The translations under genes were made by a program, and so were the position numbers. A stretch of DNA of 37,146 nucleotides from Shigella phage SfMu: sequence record KP010268; one strand, 5' to 3'. Shown piece after piece: positions 177 through 35,466 of this stretch (position 1 is its first letter; each line of letters starts with the position of its first letter). The notes beneath the pieces were generated by a model. The model did not search any database and was not told the DNA's origin. It saw only the letters and a program-made list of their open reading frames with translations.

Positions 177-325
177 AATAACTACTGAACTTGCTTCTAA
201 ACAATTCAAAAAAGCTTCAAAACAAATAACAACAGGGCGACTGTTGAACGATTATACCGCAAAACAGTCTATAACATCCTAAACCCATTATTGAGGTAAG
301 CCGTGCTTTAGTTCGCTCCTGGTTG

Positions 326-850
326 TTATACAGCTTTTTTTACATCGTCTTCTCTTGCCGGGAGGTTGTGTTCCTTATTTTCATACTGAGATAAAATCTC
401 TCTCGCTTTTTCCGGCGGTAATGCTTGAAGTGTCTGTAGGGTTCTTTGTTGTTCCACAGTAACCCCCAATGCTTCTAACGCTTTATCTTTGCTAACAATT
501 GTCGGCATAAGACCTTTAATTCCTGCCACACGAATGATCTCAATAGCCGCAGCTTGCTCATCAGGCGTTAAGAAACTCATTGCATAAACTAGCCGCTCAT
601 CAACTGTATGATGGCTTGGTACATGTACTGGAGGGGTATCAGAAAATGATGCTCCCTTAATAGCCCTTTGGGTTTCTTCTGGTAAGCTGTTGATGTGATA
701 TTCATAAGCCACACCTTTTCCACCATGACGTTGACGTTTTACCCAATCTTCTGCCACAGCCTTTCTGGTAATGTTAGTCGCCAACTTTGGCACACCAGGC
801 ATCCCCTCCAGCTCTTTCGCATTAAACCATTCTTTGATTTCAAAAGACAT
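326..850 (-). CDS. c: Lysogenic repressor c (D108-type N-terminal DNA-binding domain, Mu-like C-terminus)
   Basis: 174 aa, leftward, first gene inside the left end; C-terminus ...LQALPPEKAREILSQYENKEH...VKKAV resembles Mu repressor; N-terminus [27 protein letters not shown] is visibly similar to the transposase N-terminus. Confidence 0.85.
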   Translation of the reverse strand: MSFEIKEWFNAKELEGMPGVPKLATNITRKAVAEDWVKRQRHGGKGVAYEYHINSLPEETQRAIKGASFSDTPPVHVPSHHTVDERLVYAMSFLTPDEQAAAIEIIRVAGIKGLMPTIVSKDKALEALGVTVEQQRTLQTLQALPPEKAREILSQYENKEHNLPAREDDVKKAV

Positions 851-1039
851 TGTTTAAAATCCCAATGATTTCATTAAAGTTGAAAAAAAATTACTTTAAA
901 TTTCAAATAATTAATCAAGATGCTGTAAAATCTTTTCAAATCATCATTGATTCCAAAAAGATTTCACTGTACATTGCTCGATATGCCGTGAGCTACTTTG
1001 CAGAGTAGCTCACGGGTGAATCTGAAAGGATTACATGAA
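851..1039. promoter_or_regulatory. Immunity control region between c and ner: divergent repressor/early promoters, operators, likely transposition enhancer (IAS)
   Basis: AT-rich 189-bp divergent intergenic region between repressor and ner, as in Mu/D108; individual operators not resolved. Confidence 0.6.
986..1015. promoter_or_regulatory. Perfect 11-bp inverted repeat CCGTGAGCTAC-N8-GTAGCTCACGG, probable Ner operator (D108 type)
   Basis: Read directly in the sequence, about 25 bp upstream of the ner start; matches my recollection of the D108 Ner binding site. Confidence 0.6.
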
Positions 1040-1261
1040 ATGCATATGAATAAAAGAGCTAACCGCCAAGACTGGCATCGGGCTGACATCGTTGCTGAGT
1101 TACGAAAACGCAATATGTCACTGGCCGAATTGGGAAGATCGAATCATCTTTCGTCTTCAACATTAAAAAATGCTTTAGATAAGAGATACCCAAAAGCGGA
1201 AAAAATCATTGCAGATGCATTGGGAATGACACCGCAGGATATCTGGCCATCTCGATACTAG
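1040..1261 (+). CDS. ner: Ner, early negative regulator (DNA-binding, 73 aa)
   Basis: [34 protein letters not shown]...; AAGGA RBS 9 nt upstream of ATG 1040; the six-frame ORF from 998 begins inside the operator palindrome so the internal start is preferred. Confidence 0.85.
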
Positions 1262-1268
1262 GTGCGCT

Positions 1269-3257
1269 ATGAAAGAGTGGTATACAGCGAAAGAATTGCT
1301 TGGTTTTGCTGGTTTGCCAAAGCAAGCAACTAACATTACACGTAAGGCACAAAGAGAAGGCTGGGTGTTTAGGCAAGTTACAGGTACTAAAGGTGTATCA
1401 TTTGAATTCAATATCAAATCATTTCCTGTTGCATTACGTGCTGAAATTTTATTGCAACAAGGAGGTATTGAAACAAGCCAGGGCCGTTTTGAAATCGCCC
1501 GCCCCACGCTGGAAGCCTATGATTATGATCGTGAGGCACTGTGGAGCAAATGGGATAACGCCAGCGATTCCCAGCGCAGACTTGCTGAAAAATGGTTGCC
1601 TGCGGTTCAGGCCGCAGACGAAATGCTGAACCAGGGGATTTCAACGAAAACGGCTTTTGCGACCGTTGCAGGGCATTACCAGGTCAGCGCATCCACTTTG
1701 CGTGACAAGTATTACCAGGTACAGAAGTTTGCGAAGCCTGACTGGGCGGCTGCTCTTGTTGATGGACGTGGTGCATCCCGTCGCAACGTTCACAAAAGTG
1801 AATTTGACGAGGATGCCTGGCAGTTTCTGATTGCAGATTATCTGCGACCGGAAAAACCCGCCTTCCGCAAATGTTATGAGCGTCTGGAACTGGCAGCCCG
1901 CGAGCATGGCTGGAGTATTCCCTCCCGTGCCACGGCCTTTCGCCGGATTCAGCAACTGGACGAGGCAATGGTTGTTGCCTGTCGTGAAGGTGAACATGCA
2001 CTGATGCATCTGATACCGGCACAGCAGCGAACTGTGGAACACCTGGACGCCATGCAGTGGATCAACGGCGACGGTTATCTGCATAACGTCTTTGTACGCT
2101 GGTTTAACGGTGATGTGATCCGTCCGAAAACATGGTTCTGGCAGGATGTGAAAACCCGAAAAATTCTGGGCTGGCGCTGCGATGTGAGCGAGAACATTGA
2201 TTCAATTCGCCTCTCGTTCATGGATGTTGTGACTCGCTACGGTATCCCGGAGGATTTTCACATCACCATTGATAACACCCGTGGTGCTGCGAATAAATGG
2301 CTGACGGGAGGCGCGCCCAATCGCTACCGCTTTAAGGTAAAAGAGGACGATCCAAAAGGACTGTTTTTACTGATGGGTGCGAAAATGCACTGGACAAGCG
2401 TTGTTGCCGGTAAAGGCTGGGGCCAGGCAAAACCTGTTGAACGTGCTTTCGGTGTTGGTGGGCTTGAGGAATACGTTGATAAGCATCCGGCACTGGCTGG
2501 CGCATATACGGGGCCAAATCCGCAGGCAAAACCTGATAACTATGGCGACCGCGCTGTTGATGCAGAGCTGTTTCTGAAAACCCTTGCCGAAGGTGTGGCG
2601 ATGTTCAATGCCAGAACAGGCCGTGAAACAGAAATGTGCGGGGGCAAACTCTCGTTTGATGATGTTTTCGAGCGTGAATACGCCAGAACGATTGTGCGTA
2701 AGCCAACCGAAGAACAAAAACGGATGCTGTTACTGCCTGCCGAGGCGGTGAACGTTTCACGCAAAGGCGAGTTTACGCTTAAAGTTGGCGGCTCCCTTAA
2801 AGGCGCGAAAAACGTTTATTACAACATGGCATTAATGAATGCCGGAGTGAAAAAAGTTGTGGTCAGATTTGATCCACAGCAGTTACACAGCACGGTTTAT
2901 TGCTACACCCTGGACGGTCGGTTTATCTGTGAAGCGGAATGTCTGGCACCTGTTGCGTTTAATGATGCTGCGGCAGGCCGTGAATATCGCCGCCGCCAGA
3001 AACAACTGAAATCTGCGACGAAAGCAGCGATTAAGGCACAGAAACAAATGGATGCACTGGAAGTGGCAGAGCTGCTGCCGCAGATAGCCGAATCTGAAGC
3101 ACCAGAATCACGAATTGTCGGCATTTTCCGGCCTTCCGGTAATACGGAACGGGTGAAGAATCAGGAGCGTGATGATGAATACGAAACTGAGCGTGATGAA
3201 TATCTGAATCATTCGCTGGATATTCTGGAACAGAACAGACGTAAAAAAGTCATTTAA
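1269..3257 (+). CDS. A: Transposase A (MuA-like DDE transposase)
   Basis: 662 aa, the size and position of MuA; N-terminal domain [27 protein letters not shown] paralogous to repressor N-terminus; follows ner. Confidence 0.92.
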
Positions 3258-4479: not shown

Positions 4480-4710
4480 ATGTGTACTAAAGCTGAAAAA
4501 TATATTGAATGGGTTAAACGGGTACAGAATAACAATGTGGCTCTGACTGCATTTAATTGCCCCAAATGCAAAGAGCAAATTATGACGCAATGCTCACCAG
4601 AAAATGAAGTATGGGACTCCTTTGCATGTTGTCCGTGGTGCAGCGCAGTTTTCTTTAAGCAGGTAAAAGGCGCGAAGGTAAAAGCCAGCGCAGTTATTCA
4701 GAATCAATAA
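4480..4710 (+). CDS. Small early protein with zinc-ribbon Cys motifs (76 aa)
   Basis: CPKC ... CCPWC motifs; GGAG RBS 6 nt upstream of ATG 4480 (six-frame ORF extends to 4456). Confidence 0.6.
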   Translation: MCTKAEKYIEWVKRVQNNNVALTAFNCPKCKEQIMTQCSPENEVWDSFACCPWCSAVFFKQVKGAKVKASAVIQNQ

Positions 4711-4721
4711 GGAGAAACAAA

Positions 4722-4985
4722 ATGGCAAAAGTAATTATTGAAATTAAAAATACAGTATCTGGAATTAAAGGACGGAATTTGCGCACCAGCATTGCGGTTG
4801 ACGGTAGTGTGGAACTGGACGGTGATGAGGGGACACTTGCAGGTCTGGTGGCGTTACTGGTGCTTAATAAAAGCCAGAAAATAATTAATGAGTCAGCCCA
4901 TGAAGCTATCGAGATTTTGAAAAACGATGGTGTCATTACCGGTGGCCGTGTCACTGAAATGGCTGTTGAAAAAACATGCCACTGA
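4722..4985 (+). CDS. Hypothetical early protein (87 aa)
   Basis: Strong AAGGAG RBS upstream of ATG; tightly packed in the early operon. Confidence 0.65.
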   Translation: MAKVIIEIKNTVSGIKGRNLRTSIAVDGSVELDGDEGTLAGLVALLVLNKSQKIINESAHEAIEILKNDGVITGGRVTEMAVEKTCH

Positions 4986-6262: not shown

Positions 6263-6359
6263 TACCACCATTAATATTTAATTAATTCACATTCTTTTAA
6301 TTATGGCGCGATGCGTCAGGGGACGACTCGCGCCTGAATCAGGACCAGAGGAAATGAAT

Positions 6360-6908
6360 ATGAAAGCATATGCTTATTTTAAACTGAGTGACGCAGCCGC
6401 TAACGGTTATACGATTCGCTGGCTGAAAGATGTTTCTGTTAAGCGTGACAAAATCATCTGCTCATTGCAGCGTGCGTTTGGCGCAGACGGTGTTTCCCTT
6501 GTCAGTAACAGAGGGTATGAACGGGTTGAATGTATCTGGATGAATCAATTAGCGCCGGAATTATGGCGTGGTAAATCAGACGGACTGTTTATTGGTGGAT
6601 TTCAGTTTTATGGCGTTGTACCGGATATAACAACACCGGAAGGCCGAAACAATGCGACGCTTATTCAGGAACATGAAGAGCAACTCCGGAAATATCCCAC
6701 ATTCCCGGTCTGGTTGTGTAATGAACTCGGGGTTGATGTTGTACCCAACATGTTTGATCTCAAATCAGTCTGGACGATGCACCACAGCCGTGACGGATTC
6801 GGCATTTTGTTTGAGGTGTGCCTGCTGGATGGTGAGGTTAAGGGACCGGTTCCTGCCGAATGCCAGCGCATTAAACATTCTGAATTTGTGGCACTGACGG
6901 AGGAATAA
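6360..6908 (+). CDS. Hypothetical early protein (182 aa)
   Basis: AGAGGA RBS 7 nt upstream of ATG 6360; six-frame ORF extends to 6303. Confidence 0.6.
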   Translation: MKAYAYFKLSDAAANGYTIRWLKDVSVKRDKIICSLQRAFGADGVSLVSNRGYERVECIWMNQLAPELWRGKSDGLFIGGFQFYGVVPDITTPEGRNNATLIQEHEEQLRKYPTFPVWLCNELGVDVVPNMFDLKSVWTMHHSRDGFGILFEVCLLDGEVKGPVPAECQRIKHSEFVALTEE

Positions 6909-8140: not shown

Positions 8141-8449
8141 ATGAATAATGGTGTATTTTCAAAATCAGAAGAGCTTGCCGCCCTGCTGATTGCCGGTGGT
8201 TTGCCGAAAAAAGAAGTGCATGACTTTGTGAATTTTGTATATGAGCCGTCTCATGAAAAAGCTATTGACGAGGTCATGGCGTACCGGTTTGGCATTGTTG
8301 CTGAGTCACTGAGTCCTCACTGGATTATTGAAAATCTCCGCGCTATTGCTGATGGCAACGATAAATCAGCAGCCGTTGCTGCACTGGATGTGTTACGGCA
8401 AATGAGTCTGAAATTTTATCCTGAATTTATTCTGAGGGCCGCAAAATGA
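8141..8449 (+). CDS. Hypothetical early protein (102 aa)
   Basis: ATG 8141 directly after previous stop with AGGTGA RBS; six-frame ORF from GTG 8126. Confidence 0.6.
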   Translation: MNNGVFSKSEELAALLIAGGLPKKEVHDFVNFVYEPSHEKAIDEVMAYRFGIVAESLSPHWIIENLRAIADGNDKSAAVAALDVLRQMSLKFYPEFILRAAK

Positions 8450-9022: not shown

Positions 9023-9574
9023 ATGAATCGCACATCCCTGATTAAATTAATCCATGTCGCCCGTCGGGAGCTACAACTCGACGACGACACTTACCGCGCT
9101 TTTCTGATGCAGAAAACGGGCAAAATCAGTTGCCGCGAGCTGACGGTAACGCAACTGGAACAGGTGCTCGATGCCATGAAAGAACGCGGCTTTAAGAAGC
9201 TGAATAAACATCCACGTCGCCGCTTTAAGGGGCATGTCACGCCCCGCGAGAAGGTATACAAAGTCTGGCAGCAGATGGCAGAAGACGGTTTTATTACCGA
9301 TGGCGGTGATGTGGCGCTGGATAAATATGTTCAGCGCCTGACGGCGAAACGTAATGGCGGACAGGGTGTTTCCACGCTGGCGTGGTGTCATGGCGACACC
9401 CTGTTGATTGTTCTCGAAACTCTCAAGCAGTGGCATATCCGCTGTATTCGTGAAGCCTTTTCCCGTCACGGGCTTCCGTTGCCGGTCAGTCCGTCCGGGC
9501 GTGAACTGCGCGGCTATGATGCCATGACGGCGGCTTATGCCCATGCCAGAAAGACACGGAGGATGGCACAATGA
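9023..9574 (+). CDS. gemA: GemA-like early protein (183 aa)
   Basis: Size and position immediately upstream of mor match Mu gemA; GGAGG RBS. Confidence 0.6.
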   Translation: MNRTSLIKLIHVARRELQLDDDTYRAFLMQKTGKISCRELTVTQLEQVLDAMKERGFKKLNKHPRRRFKGHVTPREKVYKVWQQMAEDGFITDGGDVALDKYVQRLTAKRNGGQGVSTLAWCHGDTLLIVLETLKQWHIRCIREAFSRHGLPLPVSPSGRELRGYDAMTAAYAHARKTRRMAQ

Positions 9575-9960
9575 CGGAAGATTTATTTGGTGATTTGCAG
9601 GATGACACCATCCTGGCACATCTTGACAATCCCGCAGAGGATGCGTCACGCTTTCCGGCACTGCTGGCGGAGCTGAACGATTTACTGCGCGGGGAGTTGT
9701 CCCGGCTGGGTGTTGATCCTGCCCATTCACTGGAGATTGTTGTGGCTATCTGTAAGCATCTGGGTGGCGGTCAGGTCTACATTCCACGCGGTCAGGTTCT
9801 GGACTCGCTGATTCGGGATTTGCGTATCTGGAATGATTTTAACGGTCGCAACGTCAGCGAACTGACCACCCGTTATGGTGTCACTTTCAATACGGTTTAC
9901 AAGGCCATTCGCCGGATGCGACGGCTGAAATACCGCCAGTACCAGCCCTCACTTCTGTAA
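9571..9960 (+). CDS. mor: Mor, middle operon regulator (transcription activator)
   Basis: 129 aa MTEDLFGDLQDDTILAHLDNPAED... recognised as Mu Mor; last gene of early operon; paralogous to C downstream. Confidence 0.9.
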   Translation: MTEDLFGDLQDDTILAHLDNPAEDASRFPALLAELNDLLRGELSRLGVDPAHSLEIVVAICKHLGGGQVYIPRGQVLDSLIRDLRIWNDFNGRNVSELTTRYGVTFNTVYKAIRRMRRLKYRQYQPSLL

Positions 9961-10037: not shown

Positions 10038-10268
10038 ATGGGTAAAGGCTGGAATGCATCCTTTCATCTTGGCAGACGTGAGCGGCTGCGTCAGGAGGTT
10101 TTGCACCGTGTCGCCGGTGGGCCACGGCCTGCGCCCCGCGACTATACCGGTCATGATGGCACCCACGGCAGTTATTACATGAAAGGCTGGCAGTCAGTTG
10201 ATATGCCGGAAATTCTTCACCACTGTCAACGTTATAAGGAAAAATATTGTGTACAGAAAATTCAGTGA
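10038..10268 (+). CDS. Hypothetical middle-operon ORF (76 aa)
   Basis: ORF between early terminator and C; no recognisable RBS, basic and Gly/Pro-rich composition. Confidence 0.35.
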   Translation: MGKGWNASFHLGRRERLRQEVLHRVAGGPRPAPRDYTGHDGTHGSYYMKGWQSVDMPEILHHCQRYKEKYCVQKIQ

Positions 10269-10380
10269 TGAATGTTTCGGGCCGTCCACGCTGATTAATG
10301 CGATAAAAGTGATTGCCCTTGTGGTTCTGATAACCATCAGTGCCGTGGTGTATCTTTTTGTCTGTTAACCGGGGGAAAAT

Positions 10381-10803
10381 ATGCAGCATGATTTATTTGA
10401 ACACGATCCGGCAATTCGCCAGTTAATCGGGCATATTGATAACATCCCGGCCCCGGAACTGGAATCACGCTGGCCCCGTTCAGTGGTTGATCTGATTGAT
10501 GTTCTGGAAAACGAACTGAAACGCCAGAACGTCAGCAATCCCCGTGAGCTTGCCCGTAAACAGGCCGTTGCCCTGTCCTGTTTTCTGGGGGGGCGGCAGT
10601 TTTACATCCCCTGCGGCGATACGATCCTGACCGCGTTACGCGACGATTTGCTTTACTGCCAGTTCAATGGTCGTAACATGGAAGAACTGCGTCGCCAGTA
10701 CCGCCTGTCCCAGCCGCAGATCTACCAGATTATTGCCCGCCAGAGAAAGCTGCATACACGACGTCATCAGCCTGATCTGTTCTCACCTGAAAGCCAGAAA
10801 TAA
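10381..10803 (+). CDS. C: C, late gene transcription activator
   Basis: 140 aa MQHDLFEHDPAIRQLIGHIDNIPAPELE... recognised as Mu C; Mor paralog (shared ...FYIPCGDTIL / QVYIPRGQVL and ...CQFNGRNMEEL / NDFNGRNVSEL). Confidence 0.9.
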   Translation: MQHDLFEHDPAIRQLIGHIDNIPAPELESRWPRSVVDLIDVLENELKRQNVSNPRELARKQAVALSCFLGGRQFYIPCGDTILTALRDDLLYCQFNGRNMEELRRQYRLSQPQIYQIIARQRKLHTRRHQPDLFSPESQK

Positions 10804-10894
10804 CCGGCATCCTGCCGGTTATTTCCTGTCACCATAATCCCGCACCTGCCATCTGATTTTTTAGACTGCCATCAGAGCATTTTTTCAGGGAAGC
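10804..10894 (+). promoter_or_regulatory. Putative late promoter Plys (C-dependent), overlapping a hairpin at the C stop
   Basis: Motif CATAATCCCGCACCT about 48-56 bp upstream of lys ATG, shared with the region upstream of gene I; hairpin AACCGGCA-TCC-TGCCGGTT at 10802..10820. Confidence 0.5.
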
Positions 10895-11413
10895 ATGATG
10901 GCGGGGATACCAAAAAAACTGAAAGCCGCACTGCTGGCGGCAACGATTGCCGGTGGCGGTGTGGGTGGTTATCAGGAAATGACCCGTCATTCTCTGATCC
11001 ATCTGGAAAATATCGCTTATATGCCTTACCGCGATATTGCCAGTGTGCTTACGGTCTGTGTGGGACATACCGGGCCGGATATCGAAATGCGCCGTTACAG
11101 CCATGCGGAGTGTATGGCTTTTCTCGACAGTGATTTAAAACCGGTTTATGCGGCAATCGATCGTCTTGTCAGGGTGCCGCTGACGCCATATCAGAAAACG
11201 GCGCTGGCAACGTTTATTTTCAACACCGGTGTTACCGCATTCAGTAAATCAACGCTGCTGAAAAAACTCAATGCCGGTGATTACGCCGGAGCGCGTGACC
11301 AGATGGCCCGCTGGGTGTTTGCCGCAGGCCATAAATGGAAAGGACTGATGAACCGTCGCGAAGTGGAAATGGCTATCTGGAATATCAGGGGGGCGGATGA
11401 CCTTCGCCAGTAA
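10895..11413 (+). CDS. lys: Endolysin (lysozyme-like, SAR-type N-terminus)
   Basis: 172 aa; Gly/Ala-rich weakly hydrophobic N-terminus KKLKAALLAATIAGGGVGGY typical of signal-anchor-release endolysins; recognised as Mu Lys. Confidence 0.88.
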   Translation: MMAGIPKKLKAALLAATIAGGGVGGYQEMTRHSLIHLENIAYMPYRDIASVLTVCVGHTGPDIEMRRYSHAECMAFLDSDLKPVYAAIDRLVRVPLTPYQKTALATFIFNTGVTAFSKSTLLKKLNAGDYAGARDQMARWVFAAGHKWKGLMNRREVEMAIWNIRGADDLRQ

Positions 11414-11783
11414 AAGTTTACTGCTGGCAGCCGTGTTTGCCGCCGTTCTGTCCGGGGTGTTGTGGCACAGGCTGGACAGCACCCGCCACGATAACCAGAC
11501 GCTGCGCCGTGAATTACAGACGGAGCAACAGGCCCGCAACACGGCTGAATGGTTGTTACACAGTCAGGAACAGACGATGCAGGTATTTTCCGCTATCCGT
11601 GCCGCAAATCGTGCCGCGCGGCTGGCAGACGAGACAGAACATCATGATGCAAAACAAAAAATTACAACCGCCATTACCGGTGACAATTGCAGCACTCGTC
11701 CTGTGCCTGCCGTTGCTGCTGACAGGTTGCGGGAACTCGAAAAACGCACCCGTGCCATCGGTGGTGATCCTGCCCGAAACTGA
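11397..11783 (+). CDS. Inner-membrane spanin (i-spanin) candidate
   Basis: 128 aa with N-terminal transmembrane helix SLLLAAVFAAVLSGVLW then coiled-coil-like region; directly after endolysin. Confidence 0.7.
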   Translation: MTFASKSLLLAAVFAAVLSGVLWHRLDSTRHDNQTLRRELQTEQQARNTAEWLLHSQEQTMQVFSAIRAANRAARLADETEHHDAKQKITTAITGDNCSTRPVPAVAADRLRELEKRTRAIGGDPARN

Positions 11784-11985
11784 TGCAGAACTGACGGAAG
11801 CAACGCCCGTTCCGCCCATGCCACAGCCCCTGACGTGGGGAGCATCCCTGCTCTGGAATGCTGACCTGCTGATGGCGCTCGGGCAGTGCAACCGCGACAA
11901 GGCATCAGTCCGGGAACAGGAGACCCGGAGGAAAGAAATTTATGAACGAAGACCAGAACCGGGCGGTGGCGCTGCTGCTCGCTGA
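11644..11985 (+). CDS. Outer-membrane lipoprotein spanin (o-spanin) candidate, overlapping i-spanin in another frame
   Basis: MMQNKKLQPPLPVTIAALVLCLPLLLTGCGNSKN: signal peptide with lipobox LTGC; Pro-rich mature region; start embedded in the i-spanin gene. Confidence 0.7.
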   Translation: MMQNKKLQPPLPVTIAALVLCLPLLLTGCGNSKNAPVPSVVILPETDAELTEATPVPPMPQPLTWGASLLWNADLLMALGQCNRDKASVREQETRRKEIYERRPEPGGGAAAR

Positions 11986-12136
11986 ACTCTGGCAGGGGAA
12001 TACCCGTGATATTCCCCGTCCGGCGGCGTATGACCCGCCTGTATTGTGCGCCGGTTGCGGTCGTGAGCTGCGGCCTGATGTGCTGAGACAGCAGCCGATG
12101 GCGAACTACTGCCACTGGTGCCGTGGAGCAGAATAA
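11942..12136 (+). CDS. Small Cys-rich protein (64 aa) in lysis region
   Basis: CAGC ... CHWC zinc-ribbon-like motifs; GGAGG RBS upstream of ATG. Confidence 0.55.
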   Translation: MNEDQNRAVALLLAELWQGNTRDIPRPAAYDPPVLCAGCGRELRPDVLRQQPMANYCHWCRGAE

Positions 12137-12438
12137 TGGATTCAGTTTTAGCGTTATGGCCTTACCTGTTGTACCTGTTGCCTGTCGCCGCCGGTGGGGC
12201 CGTCTGGGCGATGCGTCGTAGTTTTGCCAGCACCGAGCGTGTGGAGCGTCTTGAAAACCGGATGACCGAAATGGAAACCCGCTACGCCAGCATCCCTGGC
12301 ACAGAAGATGTACACGAAATGCGCCTGCGAATTGCAGAGCTGTCCGGCGATATCCGGGTGCTGTCCCAGCGGGTGCAGTCATTTTCCCATCAACTGGAGC
12401 TGCTGCTTGAAAACGCAGTAAACCGGAGTAATTCATGA
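12136..12438 (+). CDS. Small membrane protein with coiled coil (100 aa), possible releasin-like lysis factor
   Basis: N-terminal hydrophobic helix LALWPYLLYLLPVAAGGAVWA then helical region; TAATG overlap with previous stop, GGAG RBS; function by position only. Confidence 0.5.
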   Translation: MDSVLALWPYLLYLLPVAAGGAVWAMRRSFASTERVERLENRMTEMETRYASIPGTEDVHEMRLRIAELSGDIRVLSQRVQSFSHQLELLLENAVNRSNS

Positions 12439-13319: not shown

Positions 13320-14975
13320 ATGAACACCAGAGAAAACAATCTTAAAGCCCTTCATGCCCCCCGAAAAATCGACCTGCGTAAGGAAGCCGAACTGCTGGGC
13401 GTGAATATCGTTACCGATATCGGGGAAGCACAGCCTCGCAATGAACCGGTTTTTCTGGGTTATCAGCGCCGCTGGTTTGAGGATGAAAGCCAGATTTGTA
13501 TTGCTGAAAAATCCCGTCGTACCGGTCTGACATGGGCCGAAGCGGGCCGCAATGTCATGACGGCAGCAAAGCCGCGTCGCCGTGGCGGTCGCAACGTTTT
13601 TTATGTGGGTTCCCGTCAGGAAATGGCGCTGGAATACATTGCCGCCTGTGCCCTGTTTGCCCGCGCCTTTAACCAACTGGCAAAGGCTGACGTATGGGAG
13701 CAGACCTTCTGGGACAGCGACAAAAAAGAAGAAATCCTCACTTATATGATCCGTTTCCCTAACAGCGGATTTAAGGTGCAGGCGCTGTCAAGCCGTCCGT
13801 CTAACCTGCGTGGTTTGCAGGGGGACGTGGTGATTGATGAGGCGGCATTTCATGAAGCCCTGGACGAACTCCTGAAAGCGGCTTTTGCTCTCACCATGTG
13901 GGGTGCCCGCGTGCGGATCATATCGACACATAACGGCGTCGATAACCTGTTTAACCAGTACATTCAGGATGCGCGCGAGGGGCGCAAGGATTACAGCGTT
14001 CACCGCATCACGCTGGATGATGCCATCGCTGACGGGTTGTACCGACGTATCTGTTACGTCACGAATCAGCCGTGGTCGCCGGAAGCGGAAAAAGCCTGGC
14101 GTGATGGCCTGTACCGGAATGCGCCGAATAAAGAGAGTGCCGACGAGGAATACGGCTGCATTCCCAAAAAATCCGGGGGCGCTTATCTGTCACGCGTGCT
14201 GATTGAAGCCGCCATGACGCCAGTGCGGGATATCCCGATTCTGCGTTTTGAAGCCCCGGACGATTTTGAATCGCTGACACCACAAATGCGCCACGGCATC
14301 GTTCAGGACTGGTGTGAACAGGAGCTGCTCCCGTTGCTCGATGCGCTGTCGCCGCTCAATAAACACGTACTGGGCGAAGACTTTGCACGCCGTGGCGACC
14401 TGACGGTGTTTGTGCCGCTTGCCATCACTCCTGACTTACGCAAACGCGAATGTTTCCGCGTGGAGCTGCGTAATGTGACCTATGACCAGCAGCGACAAAT
14501 CCTTTTATTCATTCTGTCCCGTTTGCCCCGTTTTACCGGCGCTGCATTTGATGCCACCGGTAACGGCGGTTATCTGGCAGAAGCCGCCCGTCTGATTTAT
14601 GGCCCGGAGATGATCGACTGTGTGAATCTGACCGCATCCTGGTATCAGGAGTGGATGCCGAAACTGAAAGGCGAGTTTGAAGCGCAGAACATCACGATTG
14701 CCCGGCACCAGACCACACTTGATGACCTGCTCCACATCAAGGTGGACAAAGGTATTCCGCAGATTGATAAGGGGCGCACAAAAGATGAAGGCGGTAAAGG
14801 CCGACGACATGGCGACTTTGCCGTGGCGCTCTGTATGGCTGTCAGGGCGTCTTATATGAATGGTTTTGTTATCGACGAGGACAGCATACAGGCGCTGCCA
14901 CCACGCCACCGTGGTGATGATGTTGATAACGATGATTTTGATGATTATCACCAGTTTGAACGAGGGGGCTGGTAA
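13320..14975 (+). CDS. Terminase large subunit
   Basis: 551 aa; ATG 13320 with GAGAGGG RBS (six-frame ORF extends upstream to 13128); motif VVIDEAAFH; precedes portal. Confidence 0.8.
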   Translation: MNTRENNLKALHAPRKIDLRKEAELLGVNIVTDIGEAQPRNEPVFLGYQRRWFEDESQICIAEKSRRTGLTWAEAGRNVMTAAKPRRRGGRNVFYVGSRQEMALEYIAACALFARAFNQLAKADVWEQTFWDSDKKEEILTYMIRFPNSGFKVQALSSRPSNLRGLQGDVVIDEAAFHEALDELLKAAFALTMWGARVRIISTHNGVDNLFNQYIQDAREGRKDYSVHRITLDDAIADGLYRRICYVTNQPWSPEAEKAWRDGLYRNAPNKESADEEYGCIPKKSGGAYLSRVLIEAAMTPVRDIPILRFEAPDDFESLTPQMRHGIVQDWCEQELLPLLDALSPLNKHVLGEDFARRGDLTVFVPLAITPDLRKRECFRVELRNVTYDQQRQILLFILSRLPRFTGAAFDATGNGGYLAEAARLIYGPEMIDCVNLTASWYQEWMPKLKGEFEAQNITIARHQTTLDDLLHIKVDKGIPQIDKGRTKDEGGKGRRHGDFAVALCMAVRASYMNGFVIDEDSIQALPPRHRGDDVDNDDFDDYHQFERGGW

Positions 14976-16513
14976 TGGGCCGTATTCTGGATATTTCCGG
15001 GCAGCCGTTTGATTTTGACGATGAAATGCAGACCCGCAGCGATGAGCTGGCAATGGTCATGAAGCGCACGCAGGAGCATCCTTCCAGTGGTGTGACGCCA
15101 AACCGGGCCGCGCAGATGCTGCGTGATGCCGAACGCGGTGATCTGACAGCACAGGCTGACCTGGCCTTTGATATGGAAGAAAAGGACACCCACCTTTTTT
15201 CCGAACTGAGCAAACGCCGCCTTGCCATTCAGGCGCTGGAATGGCGCATCGCTCCGGCACGTGATGCCAGCGCACAGGAGAAAAAAGACGCTGACATGCT
15301 GAATGAATATCTGCATGATGCGGCGTGGTTTGAAGATGCCCTGTTTGATGCCGGTGATGCCATTCTCAAGGGTTATTCCATGCAGGAGATTGAATGGGGC
15401 TGGCTGGGAAAAATGCGCGTGCCGGTGGCGCTGCATCATCGCGATCCGGCGCTGTTCTGCGCGAACCCCGATAATCTGAACGAATTACGTTTGCGTGATA
15501 CGTCTTATCACGGGCTGGAGCTGCAACCATTCGGCTGGTTTATGCACCGGGCCAAATCCCGCACCGGGTACGTTGGCACCAATGGCCTTGTGCGCACGCT
15601 TATCTGGCCTTTTATTTTTAAAAACTATTCCGTGCGTGATTTTGCGGAGTTCCTGGAAATTTACGGACTCCCCATGCGCGTCGGTAAATATCCGACCGGC
15701 TCCACAAACCGCGAAAAAGCCACGCTGATGCAGGCCGTGATGGATATCGGGCGACGTGCCGGTGGCATTATTCCGATGGGGATGACGCTGGATTTTCAGA
15801 GCGCCGCAGATGGTCAGTCTGATCCCTTTATGGCGATGATTGGCTGGGCAGAAAAAGCGATTTCAAAAGCCATTCTGGGCGGCACCCTGACCACAGAGGC
15901 TGGCGATAAAGGTGCACGGTCGCTGGGTGAAGTGCATGATGAGGTTCGCCGGGAAATCCGTAACGCGGATGTGGGCCAGCTTGCCCGCAGTATTAACCGT
16001 GACCTGATTTATCCCCTGCTGGCACTGAACAGTGACAGCACCATTGATATTAACCGCCTGCCGGGCATTGTATTTGATACCAGTGAAGCGGGTGATATTA
16101 CGGCACTGTCTGACGCCATTCCGAAACTGGCGGCGGGAATGCGTATTCCGGTCTCCTGGATACAGGAAAAACTCCATATTCCGCAGCCGGTCGGTGATGA
16201 AGCCGTGTTTACTGCTCAACCGGTCGTCATGGATAACGGTCCGCAGAAAGAGGCCGCATTATCCGCTGAAGATATCCCGCAGGAGGATGATATCGACCGG
16301 ATGGGCGTCTCACCGGAAGATTGGCAGCGTTCGGTTGATCCCCTGCTGAAACCCGTCATTTTTTCTGTGCTGAAAGATGGCCCGGAAGCCGCCATGAACA
16401 AAGCTGCTTCATTATATCCGCAGATGGATGATGCAGAACTTATCGACATGCTGACCCGTGCCATTTTTGTTGCCGATATATGGGGGCGTCTGGATGCCGC
16501 AGCAGACCATTGA
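14975..16513 (+). CDS. Portal protein
   Basis: 512 aa directly after terminase with TAATG overlap; Mu portal-like by size and position. Confidence 0.8.
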   Translation: MGRILDISGQPFDFDDEMQTRSDELAMVMKRTQEHPSSGVTPNRAAQMLRDAERGDLTAQADLAFDMEEKDTHLFSELSKRRLAIQALEWRIAPARDASAQEKKDADMLNEYLHDAAWFEDALFDAGDAILKGYSMQEIEWGWLGKMRVPVALHHRDPALFCANPDNLNELRLRDTSYHGLELQPFGWFMHRAKSRTGYVGTNGLVRTLIWPFIFKNYSVRDFAEFLEIYGLPMRVGKYPTGSTNREKATLMQAVMDIGRRAGGIIPMGMTLDFQSAADGQSDPFMAMIGWAEKAISKAILGGTLTTEAGDKGARSLGEVHDEVRREIRNADVGQLARSINRDLIYPLLALNSDSTIDINRLPGIVFDTSEAGDITALSDAIPKLAAGMRIPVSWIQEKLHIPQPVGDEAVFTAQPVVMDNGPQKEAALSAEDIPQEDDIDRMGVSPEDWQRSVDPLLKPVIFSVLKDGPEAAMNKAASLYPQMDDAELIDMLTRAIFVADIWGRLDAAADH

Positions 16514-18476: not shown

Positions 18477-19562
18477 ATGAAAAAACACGCGATTGGCATT
18501 GCCGCATTGAGTGCGCTGTCCATTGACGATGACGGCTGGTGCCAGCTATTGCCTGCCGGTCATTTCAGTGCCCGTGATGGTCGTCCGTTTGATGTGACAG
18601 GTGGTCAGGGGTGGTTCATCGACGGTGAGATTGCCGGGCGTCTGGTTGAAGGCGTTCGCGCGCTCAACCAGGACGTGCTGATTGATTACGAGCATAACCA
18701 GCTACGTAAGGACAAAGGATTACCCCCGGAACAACTCGTCGCGGCTGGCTGGTTTAACGCCGATGAAATGCAGTGGCGTGAAGGTGAAGGATTATTTATC
18801 CACCCACGCTGGACGGCGGCGGCACAGCAGCGCATCGATGACGGTGAATTTGGTTATCTCTCTGCGGTTTTTCCGTATGACACCGCCACCGGTGCGGTGC
18901 TGCAAATCCGCCTTGCTGCGCTGACCAATGACCCCGGTGCCACCGGCATGAAAAAGCTGACCGCACTGGCGGCAGACCTTCCCGACATCCTTCAACAGGA
19001 GAACAAACCCATGAATGAAACGCTGCGCAAGCTGCTTGCGCGTCTTGGGGTGACGGTCCCCGAAAATGCAGACATCACCGATGAACAGGCCAGCGCGGCC
19101 CTGAGTGCGCTTGATGCGCTCGAAACAGATGCCGGAAAAGTGGCGTCGTTATCCGCCGAACTGGAAAAGGCACAGAAAGCCGCCGTTGACCTGACGAAAT
19201 ACGTCCCGGTGGAAAGCTACAACGCCCTGCGTGATGAACTGGCACAGGCGACTGCACAAAGCGCCACAGCCAGCCTGAGCGCCGTTCTGGATAAGGCGGA
19301 ACAGGAAGGCCGCATTTTCAAAAGCGAACGTGCCTATCTGGAACAGCTTGGCGGTCAGATTGGCGTGGCGGCACTGTCGGCACAGCTTGAGAAAAAACAG
19401 CCCATCGCTGCGTTATCTGCCATGCAGACCACCACAGCGAAAATCCCGTCGCAGGAAAAAACGGCTGTGGCGGTGCTGTCTGCTGATGAACAGGCAGCAG
19501 TGAAGGCGCTCGGCATTACAGAGGCTGAGTATCTGAAAATGAAACAGGAACAAGAAAAATGA
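18477..19562 (+). CDS. I: Head maturation protease / scaffold protein (Mu I-like)
   Basis: 361 aa; Ala/Glu/Gln-rich helical C-terminal half typical of scaffold; position before major capsid gene. Confidence 0.75.
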   Translation: MKKHAIGIAALSALSIDDDGWCQLLPAGHFSARDGRPFDVTGGQGWFIDGEIAGRLVEGVRALNQDVLIDYEHNQLRKDKGLPPEQLVAAGWFNADEMQWREGEGLFIHPRWTAAAQQRIDDGEFGYLSAVFPYDTATGAVLQIRLAALTNDPGATGMKKLTALAADLPDILQQENKPMNETLRKLLARLGVTVPENADITDEQASAALSALDALETDAGKVASLSAELEKAQKAAVDLTKYVPVESYNALRDELAQATAQSATASLSAVLDKAEQEGRIFKSERAYLEQLGGQIGVAALSAQLEKKQPIAALSAMQTTTAKIPSQEKTAVAVLSADEQAAVKALGITEAEYLKMKQEQEK

Positions 19563-20476
19563 TTGTCACCCCGGCATCCATTAAAGCCCTGATGACCTCC
19601 TGGCGTAAGGATTTTCAGGGCGGTCTTGAAGACGCCCCGTCGCAGTACAGCAAAATTGCAATGGTGGTGAACTCTTCCACCCGCAGTAATACCTATGGCT
19701 GGCTGGGTAAATTCCCGACCCTGAAAGAATGGGTGGGTAAGCGAACCATTCAGCAAATGGAAGCGCATGGCTACTCCATCGCCAATAAAACGTTTGAAGG
19801 CACCGTGGGTATTTCCCGTGATGACTTCGAGGATGACAATCTGGGTATTTATGCGCCGATTTTTCAGGAGATGGGCCGTTCTGCGGCAGTTCAGCCGGAT
19901 GAGCTGATTTTTAAACTTCTGAAAGATGGCTTTACCCAGCCCTGCTATGACGGTCAGAACTTCTTCGACAAGGAGCATCCGGTATATCCGAATGTGGACG
20001 GCACGGGCAGCGCGGTTAATACCTCCAACATCGTTGAGCAGGACAGCTTCAGCGGTCTGCCATTCTATCTGCTGGACTGCTCCCGCGCAGTCAAACCGCT
20101 GATTTTCCAGGAGCGCCGCAAACCGGAACTGGTCGCACGTACCCGTATCGATGACGACCACGTTTTTATGGATAACGAGTTCCTGTTTGGTGCCAGCGCC
20201 CGCCGTGCTGCCGGTTACGGCTTCTGGCAGATGGCTGTCGCGGTAAAAGGCGATCTGACGCTGGATAACCTCTGGAAGGGCTGGCAACTGATGCGATCTT
20301 TTGAAGGTGATGGCGGTAAGAAGCTGGGCCTGAAGCCGACGCATATCGTTGTACCGGTCGGGCTGGAAAAAGCCGCAGAGCAACTGCTTAACCGTGAACT
20401 GTTCGCGGATGGCAATACCACCGTCTCCAACGAGATGAAGGGCAAGCTGCAACTGGTTGTCGCTGACTACCTGTAA
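19559..20476 (+). CDS. T: Major capsid protein (Mu T-like)
   Basis: 305 aa; ATGA overlap with I; followed by a strong terminator as expected for a highly expressed capsid gene. Confidence 0.8.
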   Translation: MIVTPASIKALMTSWRKDFQGGLEDAPSQYSKIAMVVNSSTRSNTYGWLGKFPTLKEWVGKRTIQQMEAHGYSIANKTFEGTVGISRDDFEDDNLGIYAPIFQEMGRSAAVQPDELIFKLLKDGFTQPCYDGQNFFDKEHPVYPNVDGTGSAVNTSNIVEQDSFSGLPFYLLDCSRAVKPLIFQERRKPELVARTRIDDDHVFMDNEFLFGASARRAAGYGFWQMAVAVKGDLTLDNLWKGWQLMRSFEGDGGKKLGLKPTHIVVPVGLEKAAEQLLNRELFADGNTTVSNEMKGKLQLVVADYL

Positions 20477-20542: not shown

Positions 20543-20953
20543 ATGTCAGGCACTTCGCTTAATTCACAACGGCTGGACACTTCTCGCATCACTTGCACGG
20601 CGATTATTAAATGCCTTCGTCCGGTCTACCGCCGCGCCGGAATCGCCTTTACACGTGGCGAAAACACCGTGGAAGTCACCGAAGAACAACTGGCGATCAT
20701 TCGTGCCGACAGCGTGCTGTCTGTGGTATCTGCATCGTCAGCAGAAACGCTCACTGAGGCTGGGGGGCTGGACGGTCTGGGTGTGGGCGATCTGAACGCC
20801 CGTATCCGTGCGACCGTTGCCGGTCTGGATAAGGCAAACCCGGAACACTTTACCGCAGGGGGGGAACCCAAAGTGAAAGCCGTCAGTGCGGCGCTGGGGG
20901 AACCGGTAAGCAGCGCGCAAATCAAAGCCGCGCTGGCTGAGGCACAAGCATGA
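20543..20953 (+). CDS. Hypothetical head protein (136 aa)
   Basis: AGGAGG RBS upstream; Ala-rich; position between capsid and head-tail genes. Confidence 0.55.
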   Translation: MSGTSLNSQRLDTSRITCTAIIKCLRPVYRRAGIAFTRGENTVEVTEEQLAIIRADSVLSVVSASSAETLTEAGGLDGLGVGDLNARIRATVAGLDKANPEHFTAGGEPKVKAVSAALGEPVSSAQIKAALAEAQA

Positions 20954-21372
20954 GCTATGCCACTCTTGACGACATGGTAAAGCGTTACCGGCGCAGCAGC
21001 CTGGACGCGCTGACATCGGATAAAACCGATTCGGGCGAACCGGATGACAGCCTGGTTGAACAGGCGTTACAGGATGCCCGTGCACTTATCGACAGCTATA
21101 TCAGCCCGCGTTATCCGTTGCCGTTATCTGTTGTGCCAGCCGCCCTGACCCGCGTCTGCTGTGATATTGCCTTCTATTACCTGTGTGATGCGCAGGCAAC
21201 CGAGCAGTGCACGCAACGTTATAAAGATGCCGTTAAGTGGCTGCATGACGTACTTAACGAAAAATTGCCGCTGGGAACGGACGCGCATGGCGCTGAACCG
21301 GTGAGCGAAAATCTGGTGGAAGTGAAATCTGATACCGCTGTTTTTTCCCGTAACCAGAGAGGATTCATCTGA
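20950..21372 (+). CDS. Head-tail connector/completion protein candidate (140 aa)
   Basis: ATGA overlap with previous gene; position as in Mu. Confidence 0.6.
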   Translation: MSYATLDDMVKRYRRSSLDALTSDKTDSGEPDDSLVEQALQDARALIDSYISPRYPLPLSVVPAALTRVCCDIAFYYLCDAQATEQCTQRYKDAVKWLHDVLNEKLPLGTDAHGAEPVSENLVEVKSDTAVFSRNQRGFI

Positions 21373-21920
21373 TGATTGCCACGACAGAAGCTGCGTTGCT
21401 TGAAACCGTTCGCGGGCTGTTCGGGCGAACGTTACGCGAAATCAAAACGCATCCGGGCACCTGGTCTGATGCCGCAATAAAAAAAATCCTGATTGCACCA
21501 CCGTCTGTTTATCTGGCGTGGCTGGGCTGCGGTGAAGGCCGCACCCGCCGTGAGGTGGAAAGCCGCTGGGTGTTTTATGTGGTGGCAAAAATGCTGAATG
21601 GTCGGGAGACCGACCGTCCGGGGATTTACCAGATTGTTGAGCGTCTGATTGCCGGGATGAATGGACAGACGTTTGGCCCGACTACCGGCCTGCGCCTGAC
21701 CAGCGTCCAGAACCTGTATACCAGTGCTCAGGGTAATTCAGGTGTCGCACTGTACGGCATCTATTTCAGTGGCATCACGCCGTTGCCGTCAGGTGTGGAC
21801 ATGGATTCGCTGGATGATTACGAGCGTCACTGGCAGACCTGGAAATTCCCGGACGAAACCCCGGAATTTGCCGCACATATCAATGTGAATCAGGAAGAGG
21901 ATCATGATGCTGAAAATTAA
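21372..21920 (+). CDS. Head-tail joining / tail terminator candidate (182 aa)
   Basis: Start overlaps previous stop; position before sheath gene. Confidence 0.6.
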   Translation: MIATTEAALLETVRGLFGRTLREIKTHPGTWSDAAIKKILIAPPSVYLAWLGCGEGRTRREVESRWVFYVVAKMLNGRETDRPGIYQIVERLIAGMNGQTFGPTTGLRLTSVQNLYTSAQGNSGVALYGIYFSGITPLPSGVDMDSLDDYERHWQTWKFPDETPEFAAHINVNQEEDHDAEN

Positions 21921-31870: not shown

Positions 31871-33336
31871 TGTTTTATATTGATAACGACAGCGGCGTAA
31901 CCGTCATGCCGCCCGTATCCGCCCAGCGTAGTGCTATCGTTCGCTGGTTTTCAGAAGGTGACGGGAATAATGTTATCACATGGCCCGGCATGGACTGGTT
32001 TAATATTGTGCAGGCGGAGTTATTAAACACGCTGGAAGAAGCCGGTATTCAACCGGATAAAACAAAATTAAACCAGCTTGCACTGTCCATTAAAGCCATT
32101 ATGAGCAATAACGCGCTGCTGATAAAAAATAACCTCAGCGAAATTAAAACTGCCGGGGCATCAGCACAGCGTACAGCACGTGAAAATCTGGATATCTATG
32201 ATGCCAGCCTGAACAAAAAAGGACTCGTTCAGCTAACCAGTGCCACTGACAGCCCCAGTGAAACGCTGGCAGCCACCGCAAAAGCGGTGAAAATTGCGAT
32301 GGATAATGCCAGTGCCCGTCTGGCAAAAGACCGGAACGGAGCAGATATTCCCAATAAGCCGCTGTTTATCCAAAACGTCGGTTTACAGGAAACGGTAAAT
32401 CAGGCTTCTGGCGCATTACAGAAAAACCAGAACGGTGCAGATATTCCAGGAAAAGATACCTTCACCAAAAATATTGGTGCCTGCCGCGCATATAGCGCAT
32501 GGGTGGATATTGGTGGCGATAGTCAGGTCTGGACAACTGCGCAATTTATTTCGTGGCTGGAGAGTCAGGGGGCATTTAACCATCCTTACTGGATGTGCAA
32601 AGGCTCATGGGCTTATGCAAATAATAAGGTCATTACAGATACAGGTTGCGGAAATATTTGTCTTGCAGGTGCTGTGGTGGAAGTTATTGGCACTCGCGGC
32701 GCAATGACCATACGTGTTACTACACCGAGTACGTCCAGCGGTGGCGGAATTACTAACGCTCAATTCACTTATATTAATCATGGCAATGCTTATGCTCCTG
32801 GCTGGCGACGAGACTACAACACGAAAAACCAGCAGCCTGCATTTGCTTTAGGGCAAACAGGAAATACCGTCGGAAACGACAAAGCCGTTGGCTGGAACTG
32901 GAATAGCGGTGTTTATGATGCAGATATCAGCGGTGCATCAACATTAATCCTCCACTTCAATAAGAATACGGGGAGCTGCCCTGCTGTACAGTTCCGTGTG
33001 AATTATAAGAACGGCGGTATTTTTTATCGTTCAGCGCGTGATGGTTATGGATTTGAGGCTGGCTGGTCAGAGTTTTACACCACAACACGCAAGCCATCAG
33101 CGAGAGATGTTGGCGCATATACGCAGGCAGAATGTAACTCAAGGTTTATTACAGGTATTCGCCTTGGTGGTCTGTCATCTGTTCGGACATGGAATGGTCC
33201 CGGCTGGTCTGACAGGTCAGGTTATGTTGTTACCGGTTCCGTTAACTCAAACAGAGATGAACTAATTGATACAACTCAGGCAAGGCCAGTTCAGTATTGC
33301 ATTAATGGGACGTGGTATAACGCGGGGAGTATTTAA
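31870..33336 (+). CDS. S: Tail fibre protein S: constant part fused to the variable part of the G segment in the current orientation
   Basis: 488 aa; gix recombination site lies inside the ORF at 32366..32391; C-terminus ...VQYCINGTWYNAGSI parallels the C-terminus of the inverted copy S'. Confidence 0.85.
   Translation: MFYIDNDSGVTVMPPVSAQRSAIVRWFSEGDGNNVITWPGMDWFNIVQAELLNTLEEAGIQPDKTKLNQLALSIKAIMSNNALLIKNNLSEIKTAGASAQRTARENLDIYDASLNKKGLVQLTSATDSPSETLAATAKAVKIAMDNASARLAKDRNGADIPNKPLFIQNVGLQETVNQASGALQKNQNGADIPGKDTFTKNIGACRAYSAWVDIGGDSQVWTTAQFISWLESQGAFNHPYWMCKGSWAYANNKVITDTGCGNICLAGAVVEVIGTRGAMTIRVTTPSTSSGGGITNAQFTYINHGNAYAPGWRRDYNTKNQQPAFALGQTGNTVGNDKAVGWNWNSGVYDADISGASTLILHFNKNTGSCPAVQFRVNYKNGGIFYRSARDGYGFEAGWSEFYTTTRKPSARDVGAYTQAECNSRFITGIRLGGLSSVRTWNGPGWSDRSGYVVTGSVNSNRDELIDTTQARPVQYCINGTWYNAGSI
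32366..32391. repeat. gixL recombination site
   Basis: TTATCCAAAACGTCGGTTTACAGGAA inside S. Confidence 0.8.
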
Positions 33337-33338
33337 CG

Positions 33339-33872
33339 ATGATGCACTTAAAAAACATTTCTGCTGGTAATCCTGAAACAAAAGAGCAATACCAGCTAAC
33401 GAAACAATTTAACATCAAATGGCTTTATACAGAGGATGGGAAAAACTGGTATGAGGAACAAAAGAACTTTCAGCCTGATACGTTGAAAATGGTCTATGAC
33501 CACAACGGCGTTATTATTTGTATTGAAAAGGATGTTTCAGCAATTAATCCGGAAGGCGCAAGCGTCGTTGAGGTTCCTGATATTACAGCAAATCGCCGGG
33601 CTGATATTTCAGGTAAATGGATGTTCAAAGATGGCGTAGTGATAAAGCGAACTTATACCGGGGAAGAGCAGAGGCAACAAGCGGAAAATGAAAAGCAAAG
33701 CCTGCTACAGCTCGTCAGGGATAAAACCCAGCTATGGGACTCACAGCTACGGCTGGGCATTATTTCCGACGAGAATAAACAAAAATTAACCGAGTGGATG
33801 CTCTATGCGCAGAAGGTCGAATCCACAGACACCTCCAGCCTGCCAGTAACGTTTCCCGAACAACCAGAATGA
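33339..33872 (+). CDS. U: Tail fibre assembly protein U
   Basis: 177 aa; N-terminal two-thirds nearly identical to minus-strand U' (MMHLKNI.AGN..T.EQY.LTK...[19 protein letters not shown]). Confidence 0.85.
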   Translation: MMHLKNISAGNPETKEQYQLTKQFNIKWLYTEDGKNWYEEQKNFQPDTLKMVYDHNGVIICIEKDVSAINPEGASVVEVPDITANRRADISGKWMFKDGVVIKRTYTGEEQRQQAENEKQSLLQLVRDKTQLWDSQLRLGIISDENKQKLTEWMLYAQKVESTDTSSLPVTFPEQPE

Positions 33873-33875
33873 AAC

Positions 33876-33895
33876 AAGGCCCGATATCGGGCCTT
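33876..33895. terminator. Bidirectional hairpin between convergent U and U'
   Basis: Self-complementary AAGGCCCGATATCGGGCCTT flanked by A/T runs on both sides. Confidence 0.7.
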
Positions 33896-33900
33896 AATTT

Positions 33901-34428: not shown

Positions 34429-34429
34429 A

Positions 34430-35395: not shown

Positions 35396-35440
35396 CGTAT
35401 CGCCTGTCTTTTGAACAGCGTTACCAGCCTTGTTTACCGT

Positions 35441-35466
35441 TTCCTGTAAACCGAGGTTTTAGATAA
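35441..35466. repeat. gixR recombination site
   Basis: TTCCTGTAAACCGAGGTTTTAGATAA, inverted copy of gixL with 2 mismatches. Confidence 0.8.

Follow-up and report, generated by a model that had tools for sequence, protein, structure and literature searches.

A Mu-type late lysis cassette in Shigella phage SfMu predicted to act without a holin

The region 10895-12438 of Shigella phage SfMu is identified by homology as a Mu-type late lysis cassette encoding gp22, gp23, gp23.1, gp24 and gp25. Very probably (about 93%), this cassette serves a Mu-type transposable phage as its late lysis operon and works in the way shown for Mu, with no holin involved. The same mechanism is assumed because of homology, as the determinants of gp22, gp23.1 and gp25 are all kept and the cytoplasmic domain of gp25 is identical to that of Mu. 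Holin-less lysis of this kind is an already known system, which was described experimentally for Mu in 2022. As that phage is 97.6% identical here, the analysed stretch of 37,146 bases (record KP010268, hereafter the window) adds little as discovery. The natural loss of gp19, the one multi-pass membrane protein that Mu has, is one small addition to the known system.

Genome context of the cassette

In BLASTN, phage Mu (AF083977, 36,717 bp) was colinear with the window from the first to the last base, with 95-98% nucleotide identity. The immunity region (234-1448) was divergent from Mu, additional DNA was found at about 6342-6897 and 8150-8443, the segment at 20953-21512 was replaced, and the G segment was inverted compared with the Mu record. 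On the basis of the end-to-end colinearity together with these differences, the window is classified as a full-length, heteroimmune Mu-like (Muvirus) genome. Over the cassette region, Yersinia phage vB_YpM_Tongde (98.7%) and Escherichia phage PhiR68_1 (98.4%) are the nearest database relatives, and D108 (97.7%) and Mu (97.6%) are also close. Similar prophages were found in 44 of 5,426 complete genomes of E. coli. The whole window gave no Rfam family at the gathering threshold.

Organization and control of the cassette

The cassette resembles that of Mu in gene order, overlaps and promoter, with 96-98% identity of the proteins, and every functionally mapped residue is kept. The Mu record AF083977 annotates a SAR endolysin, an i-spanin, an o-spanin and a releasin at positions homologous to it. 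From the raw sequence alone, the original prediction had recognised the SAR endolysin and the spanin pair in different frames, had noted that a holin was missing, and had proposed a comparison with the characterised Mu lysis genes. In this comparison, all five ORFs matched their Mu counterparts, and the Pfam hits to Phage_lysozyme, LysC and DUF2730 all exceeded their cut-offs. The features of the region are as follows.

10220..10249, + strand: junction lacking Mu gene 19 (a 4-TMD protein, Mu 9459-9830), located by alignment to Mu
10249..10368, + strand: gene 20 homologue of the middle operon, 39 aa, one TMD, GTG start (Mu gp20 homology)
10381..10803, + strand: gene C, late transcription activator of the Mor family, acting on the lysis promoter (PF08765 Mor, 116 bits; AF083977 annotation)
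10821..10887, + strand: Plys, C-dependent late promoter (placed by homology to Mu 10403-10469)
10898..11413, + strand: gp22, SAR endolysin, GH24-type muramidase (PF00959 Phage_lysozyme, 126 bits; Mu gp22 homology)
11397..11783, + strand: gp23, i-spanin (N-terminal TMD; PHROG 214 'Rz-like spanin'; Mu gp23 homology)
11644..11985, + strand: gp23.1, o-spanin, outer-membrane lipoprotein (PF23793 LysC, 55 bits; lipobox LTGC)
11942..12136, + strand: gp24, C4 zinc-ribbon protein of 64 aa (Mu gp24 homology; PHROG 3260, unknown function)
12136..12438, + strand: gp25, releasin (DUF2730), 100 aa (PF10805, 50.4 bits against a cut-off of 24.9; Mu gp25 homology)

The activator C is identical to Mu C at 138 of 140 residues. 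The surroundings of Plys are conserved to a similar degree, with 95 of 97 positions identical between window 10804-10900 and Mu 10386-10482. The promoter scan found no sigma-70 consensus promoter upstream of gp22, which is expected because Plys depends on activator C.

The SAR endolysin gp22

The endolysin ORF spans 10895-11413, and its second ATG, at 10898, corresponds to the annotated start in Mu and gives a protein of 171 aa. Following the Mu annotation, 10898 is probably the start. The protein is identical to Mu gp22 at 167 of 171 positions, and the four substitutions are V15A in the SAR domain, Q31H, G49S and L75F. The muramidase triad E-x8-D-x5-T is present as E37, D46 and T52, and G49S falls between catalytic D46 and T52.

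The N-terminus of gp22 (MAGIPKKLKAALLAATIAGGGVGGY) begins with a cytoplasmic stub, MAGIPKKLK, which carries K6, K7 and K9 and is identical to that of Mu. The SAR domain occupies approximately residues 6-25. Residues 10-25 (AALLAATIAGGGVGGY) consist of 69% Gly, Ala, Thr and Ser, and the best 19-residue Kyte-Doolittle mean is 0.97. As this value is well under the 1.6 cut-off for ordinary TMDs, the N-terminus is weakly hydrophobic. A SAR-type endolysin with a Gly/Ala-rich, weakly hydrophobic N-terminus had been predicted originally, and these values bear it out. In Mu, either K6A or K7A in gp22 removes the requirement for gp25, while changing K to R leaves it in place and K9 plays no part, according to Chamblee et al. 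(mBio 2022, PMC9239132).

The closest solved chains to gp22 were 4zpu ('Lysozyme RrrD') and 3hde ('Lysozyme'), with E-values about 1e-36. Both alignments start at gp22 residue 5, reach its end and take in the N-terminal region. We take 3hde to be R21 of phage 21. The endolysins of phage 21 (R21) and of the E. coli DLP12 prophage (RrrD) are related chains with a near full-length match to gp22. Their lysis systems differ from that of the window in employing a membrane-depolarising pinholin (S21-68 in phage 21), whereas no holin is found here and release is putatively assigned to a cytoplasm-facing DUF2730 protein. The SAR domain of gp22 also differs from these systems in having Gly at six of seven consecutive positions, and the N-terminal stub of gp22 contains the K6/K7 lock. 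Mu gp22 can be released by S21-68, the pinholin of phage 21 (PMC9239132).

The releasin gp25

The gp25 gene is the fourth after gp22. The protein has a single N-terminal TMD in N-out/C-in orientation, with an RR pair at the membrane-cytoplasm junction in line with the positive-inside rule, followed by a helical cytoplasmic domain of 74 residues with heptad repeats. In the heptads of residues 57-98, LIVMF residues occupy 83% of a/d positions against 17% of the other positions, a bias reached by 3 of 2000 shuffles. The original description of a 100-aa single-pass membrane protein with a coiled coil is consistent with this structure; it listed the protein without recognising the gp25 releasin as the trigger. 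Residues 23-100, which represent the cytoplasmic domain, are 100% identical to Mu gp25, and the RR pair is kept.

An AlphaFold2 model of gp25 built from a 19-sequence alignment was all-helical, with helices at 8-30, 36-50 and 57-98. Its confidence is low (mean pLDDT 58, pTM 0.25), and the model is therefore too uncertain for fold comparison. No solved structure matched gp25 or gp24, the best E-values being above 0.1.

The spanin pair gp23 and gp23.1

The original prediction placed an i-spanin at 11397..11783, and the N-terminal TMD, the PHROG 214 assignment and the identity to Mu gp23 at 123 of 128 residues are in agreement with it. The protein has its TMD at residues 4-22, a periplasmic domain and a single Cys (C98). 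The periplasmic domain of Mu gp23 is described as helical (PMC9239132). The partner gp23.1 is identical to Mu gp23.1 at 108 of 113 residues. Its lipobox, LTGC, contains Cys29, and the mature protein is rich in Pro, with 10 in 84 residues.

The gp23.1 gene begins within gp23 out of frame, continues 202 nt beyond the gp23 stop and shares its last 44 nt with the beginning of gp24. As it runs past the gp23 stop, the arrangement is 'overlapped', as in P2 lysB/lysC, and not 'embedded', as in lambda Rz/Rz1. Accordingly, the predicted out-of-frame position and LTGC lipobox of the o-spanin were retained, while its description as embedded was corrected. With both P2 lysB/lysC and lambda Rz/Rz1, the pair shares an inner-membrane TMD subunit and an outer-membrane lipoprotein encoded in another frame. 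From these features, gp23 and gp23.1 are classified as a two-component spanin. In Mu, gp23 and gp23.1 form a two-component spanin; cells become spherical when amber mutations affect it, and lambda RzRz1 complements the Mu spanin amber mutants, including the 23.1 amber (PMC9239132).

Search for a holin and the loss of gene 19

In the search for a holin, every ORF of 30 aa or more in the six frames of the window, 426 in total, was scanned for Kyte-Doolittle hydropathy, which is a simple threshold method and not a trained topology predictor. Among the Mu-homologous genes of the + strand, the scan found TM segments only in gp20, gp23, gp23.1 (as the signal peptide) and gp25. Four ORFs of the whole window had two predicted TM segments. 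Three of them (4694-4954, 14505-15053 and 19355-20452) were rejected as non-coding, as they lie antisense inside early, large terminase subunit or capsid genes. The fourth (32435-32707, + strand, 90 aa) is situated in the inverted G segment and had weak scores of 1.69 and 1.62. The hydropathy scan thus found no credible multi-pass membrane ORF in the window. A canonical holin or pinholin was not found in the late operon, whose TM proteins are the spanins and gp25 only, gp20 belonging to the middle operon.

Mu has four TMD proteins, gp19, gp20, gp23 and gp25, with 4 TMDs in gp19 (PMC9239132). Gene 19 lies about 650 bp upstream of the cassette in Mu, whereas in the window it is absent and gene 20 starts with GTG. 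At the junction, gene 20 follows the ribosome-binding site of gene 19, and gene 18 gains a different C-terminus. No Mu gp19 homologue was found elsewhere in the window, the best tblastn E-value being 0.41. The same junction without gene 19 runs uninterrupted in six phage isolates (Tongde, PhiR68_1 and vB_YpM_3, 23, 5 and 6), and of the E. coli prophages that matched best, most likewise have the short form. Gene 19 is carried by Mu, D108 and Mu_3F6. In Mu it is a middle gene, dispensable for lysis and not lethal on depolarisation, according to the same source (PMC9239132). The absence of gp19 here, in six Muvirus isolates and in many E. coli prophages therefore gives independent support to Mu-type lysis without a holin. 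The original prediction saw no multi-pass holin ORF nearby, and a conserved multi-TM holin gene adjacent to the cassette was to count against it; no such gene was found.

gp24 and the DUF2730 neighbourhood

The 64-aa Cys-rich protein noticed originally corresponds to gp24, which is identical to Mu gp24 at 63 of 64 residues. It has four Cys in the pattern C36xxC39-x17-C57xxC60. This CxxC-x17-CxxC pattern fits the spacing of TraR/DksA zinc fingers. The counterpart in PhiR68_1 is annotated as 'TraR/YbiI family protein', and no Pfam or NCBIfam model matched gp24 at cut-off. The accessible text of the Mu lysis paper does not use the name gp24 and describes no gp24 test (PMC9239132). As gp22 and gp25 suffice for lysis in Mu, lysis does not require gp24, which might still have a modulatory role.

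Pseudoalteromonas HS6, Pasteurella AFS-2018a and Klebsiella Kp4866-3 share one order of the DUF2730, gp26-like and small terminase genes. In HS6 and Kp4866-3, the gene directly upstream of DUF2730 encodes a zinc ribbon and equals gp24 in size, while Pasteurella AFS-2018a is without one. The zinc ribbons at this position in HS6 and Kp4866-3 showed no BLASTP similarity to gp24. In Mu, HS6 and Kp4866-3, the C4 zinc-ribbon gene overlaps the DUF2730 gene, despite DUF2730 identity of only about 31%. As the zinc-ribbon gene adjoins and overlaps DUF2730 in these three, gp24 may be imagined as a partner or timer of the releasin, or the DUF2730-gp26-terminase block may reflect a primary DUF2730 role linking lysis to packaging; such a reading is considered unlikely.

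Predicted lysis pathway and alternative explanations

According to Chamblee et al., Mu has no holin and is called the first tailed phage known to lack one, and gp25 is named 'releasin' and is needed for SAR endolysin release (PMC9239132). DNP delays Mu lysis and does not trigger it. The non-canonical trigger for endolysin release suggested in the original prediction is in agreement with this established pathway, given proteins 96-98% identical. By analogy, C would activate Plys, and gp22 would be exported by Sec and tethered inactive in the inner membrane through its Gly/Ala-rich SAR domain, with the basic pair K6/K7 in the cytoplasmic stub locking it there. The type I membrane protein gp25, consisting mostly of a cytoplasmic helical heptad-repeat domain, would let the SAR domain exit the bilayer without depolarisation. 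The freed gp22 would then refold and degrade the peptidoglycan, after which the gp23/gp23.1 spanin complex would disrupt the outer membrane. The gp25 dependence, the role of K6/K7, the function of the spanins and the insensitivity to depolarisation are expected in the window from 96-100% identity to Mu. No observation spoke against this reading, although the deviating releasin TMD allele and the gp22 changes V15A and G49S call for some caution.

Several other explanations may be considered. SAR endolysins can generally escape spontaneously without a holin (PMC9239132), and slow escape of this kind might drive lysis alone, leaving the 100-aa protein without a lysis role. In the same paper, a 25::cam Mu lysogen does not lyse sharply at about 40 min but only after about 3 h, and plasmid-borne gp22 by itself causes no lysis, while gp22 and gp25 together suffice. 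With the K6/K7 lock conserved in gp22 of the window, spontaneous escape as the sole cause is very improbable. A cryptic holin or pinholin, formed by the 39-aa gp20 (10249-10368) alone or with an unrecognised partner, would find some basis in the strong TMD of this protein (Kyte-Doolittle mean 2.96; 37 of 39 residues identical to Mu gp20). It also recalls the proposals of Samanta et al. 2021, as cited in PMC9239132, in which gp19 is the holin and gp19/gp20 are a holin/antiholin pair on the basis of topology. Against it, gene 20 belongs to the middle and not the late operon, and the proposed partner gp19 is absent here and from six plaque-forming relatives. In Mu, gp19, gp20, gp25, and gp19 with gp20 jointly, were all non-lethal after DNP, and earlier genetics had found gp19 and gp20 dispensable (PMC9239132). 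gp20 was hence rejected as a holin, Mu gp20 being dispensable and non-lethal on DNP, and a cryptic holin of this kind is extremely improbable.

The main role of DUF2730 might also be other than SAR release and be tied to gp26 and the terminase, so that endolysin release in Mu would be secondary or indirect. The gene order kept in HS6, AFS-2018a and Kp4866-3 speaks for this, as does the DUF2730 block of Pasteurella AFS-2018a, which is accompanied by an amidase and two small TM proteins. According to the Mu paper, DUF2730 also occurs alongside endolysins without SAR domains (PMC9239132). Such a role is quite unlikely to be the main one, since according to the same source gp22 and gp25 reconstitute lysis and three unrelated SAR endolysins are released faster with gp25. 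The plasmid reconstitution and the effect on three other SAR endolysins therefore argue for a direct lysis function of DUF2730 in Mu, whatever else the family does. For the action of the releasin in Mu-type lysis, several proposals have been made: the stub might be cleaved by proteolysis, the acidic cytoplasmic domain might neutralise the charge of the gp22 N-terminus or shield it, a transient TAT-like channel might form around this N-terminus, or a host factor might be used (PMC9239132). As far as it could be searched, the literature after 2022 on releasin or DUF2730 held no paper settling the mechanism.

Natural alleles of the releasin TMD

The window gp25 is 100 aa long compared with 99 aa in Mu. 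It is without L3-I4, has an additional YLL (giving YLLYLL) and shows one V-to-A change. The N-terminal allele is thus MDSVLALWPYLLYLLPVAAGG in the window versus MDLISVLALWPYLLPVVAGG in Mu, and the two natural TMD alleles are MDLISVLALWPYLLPVV and MDSVLALWPYLLYLLPVA. Relative to Mu, the window allele is accounted for by the loss of 6 nt, the tandem duplication of 9 nt and base substitutions leading to the single V-to-A. The N-terminal sequence of Mu is common to the five other phages examined. The idea that the window variant is a rare allele was rejected, as the exact 100-aa releasin was found on 975 contigs in public assemblies and is the commonest allele there. The prophages that carry it show three upstream arrangements: gene 19 absent, gene 19 present, or an extra GH108 gene.

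Within the releasin family, the TMD is the variable part. A juxtamembrane stretch, W-A-M/L-R-R-x-F-A-S-T-E-R-V-E, and a C-terminal stretch, H-Q-L-E-L-L-L-E-N-A-V, are nearly invariant. The natural TMD alleles could tune lysis timing in a phage without a holin clock.

Absence of gene 19 and arrangement of genes 18 to 20

Mu gene 19 encodes a protein with four transmembrane domains (TMDs) and its product was formerly proposed to be the holin. Comparison with Mu (AF083977) revealed a clean absence of this gene from the window.

Window 10220-10249: junction lacking gene 19; Mu AF083977 9459-9830 is missing
Window 10507-10541, minus strand: inverted match in gene C to Mu gene 19 nt 310-343

Gene 20 of the window has a GTG start and the ribosome-binding site of gene 19, and the C-terminus of gp18 differs from that of Mu and is longer (76 aa vs 72 aa). 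Six isolated Muvirus phages share this gene 19-less arrangement, as do most of the best-matching E. coli prophages. Over 35 nt, Mu gene 19 also showed 91% identity with gene C in inverted orientation, a match which is probably incidental.

Releasin allele and gene order in distant phages

The releasin of the window possesses a variant TMD allele compared with Mu.

Window 12136-12200: variant releasin TMD allele

It lacks L3-I4 of Mu through a 6-nt deletion, has YLLYLL formed by a 9-nt tandem duplication TACCTGTTG and carries a single V-to-A change; the cytoplasmic domain is invariant. With 975 contigs, this allele is the most frequent one in public assemblies.

Pseudoalteromonas phage HS6 and Klebsiella phage Kp4866-3 have a C4 zinc-ribbon gene of ~75 aa directly upstream of the DUF2730 gene and overlapping it, like gp24-gp25 of Mu.

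HS6 locus (L014) 2200-2737: C4 zinc-ribbon and DUF2730 genes
Kp4866-3 locus (L016) 2209-2722: C4 zinc-ribbon and DUF2730 genes

The order DUF2730, gp26-like and TerS is kept even in Pasteurella phage AFS-2018a, which, unlike HS6, Kp4866-3 and Mu, has no zinc-ribbon gene.

Additional gene in the middle operon of relatives

An additional gene of 186 aa, which the window lacks, is located in the middle operon of some close relatives that share the gp22/gp25 cassette; it lies between gene 18 and mor.

L008 350-910 and L009 350-910 (close relatives): extra gene with Glyco_hydro_108 and PG_binding_3 domains
L005 (vB_YpM_5) 405-965: gene of equal size at the same position, the domain assignment coming from L008 and L009 only

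The product in L008 and L009 could be a second, cytoplasmic muramidase. The gp22 of vB_YpM_5 has Ser in place of Thr52 of the catalytic triad (VLSVCVGH).

Other regions differing from Mu

Window 234-1448: immunity region, divergent from Mu
Window 326-850, minus strand: repressor of 174 aa with a Mu DNA-binding domain
Window 6303-6908, plus strand: ORF of 201 aa flanked by gam and the gene 11 homologue
Window 32366-35466: invertible G segment, in the reverse orientation compared with the Mu reference record

The divergence of the immunity region, with its 174-aa repressor and a ner-like gene different from that of Mu, indicates that the phage is heteroimmune to Mu. The 201-aa ORF lies within DNA missing from Mu; it matched no Pfam family and no TMD was predicted in it. 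The G segment is partly more divergent from Mu, with 85-92% identity.
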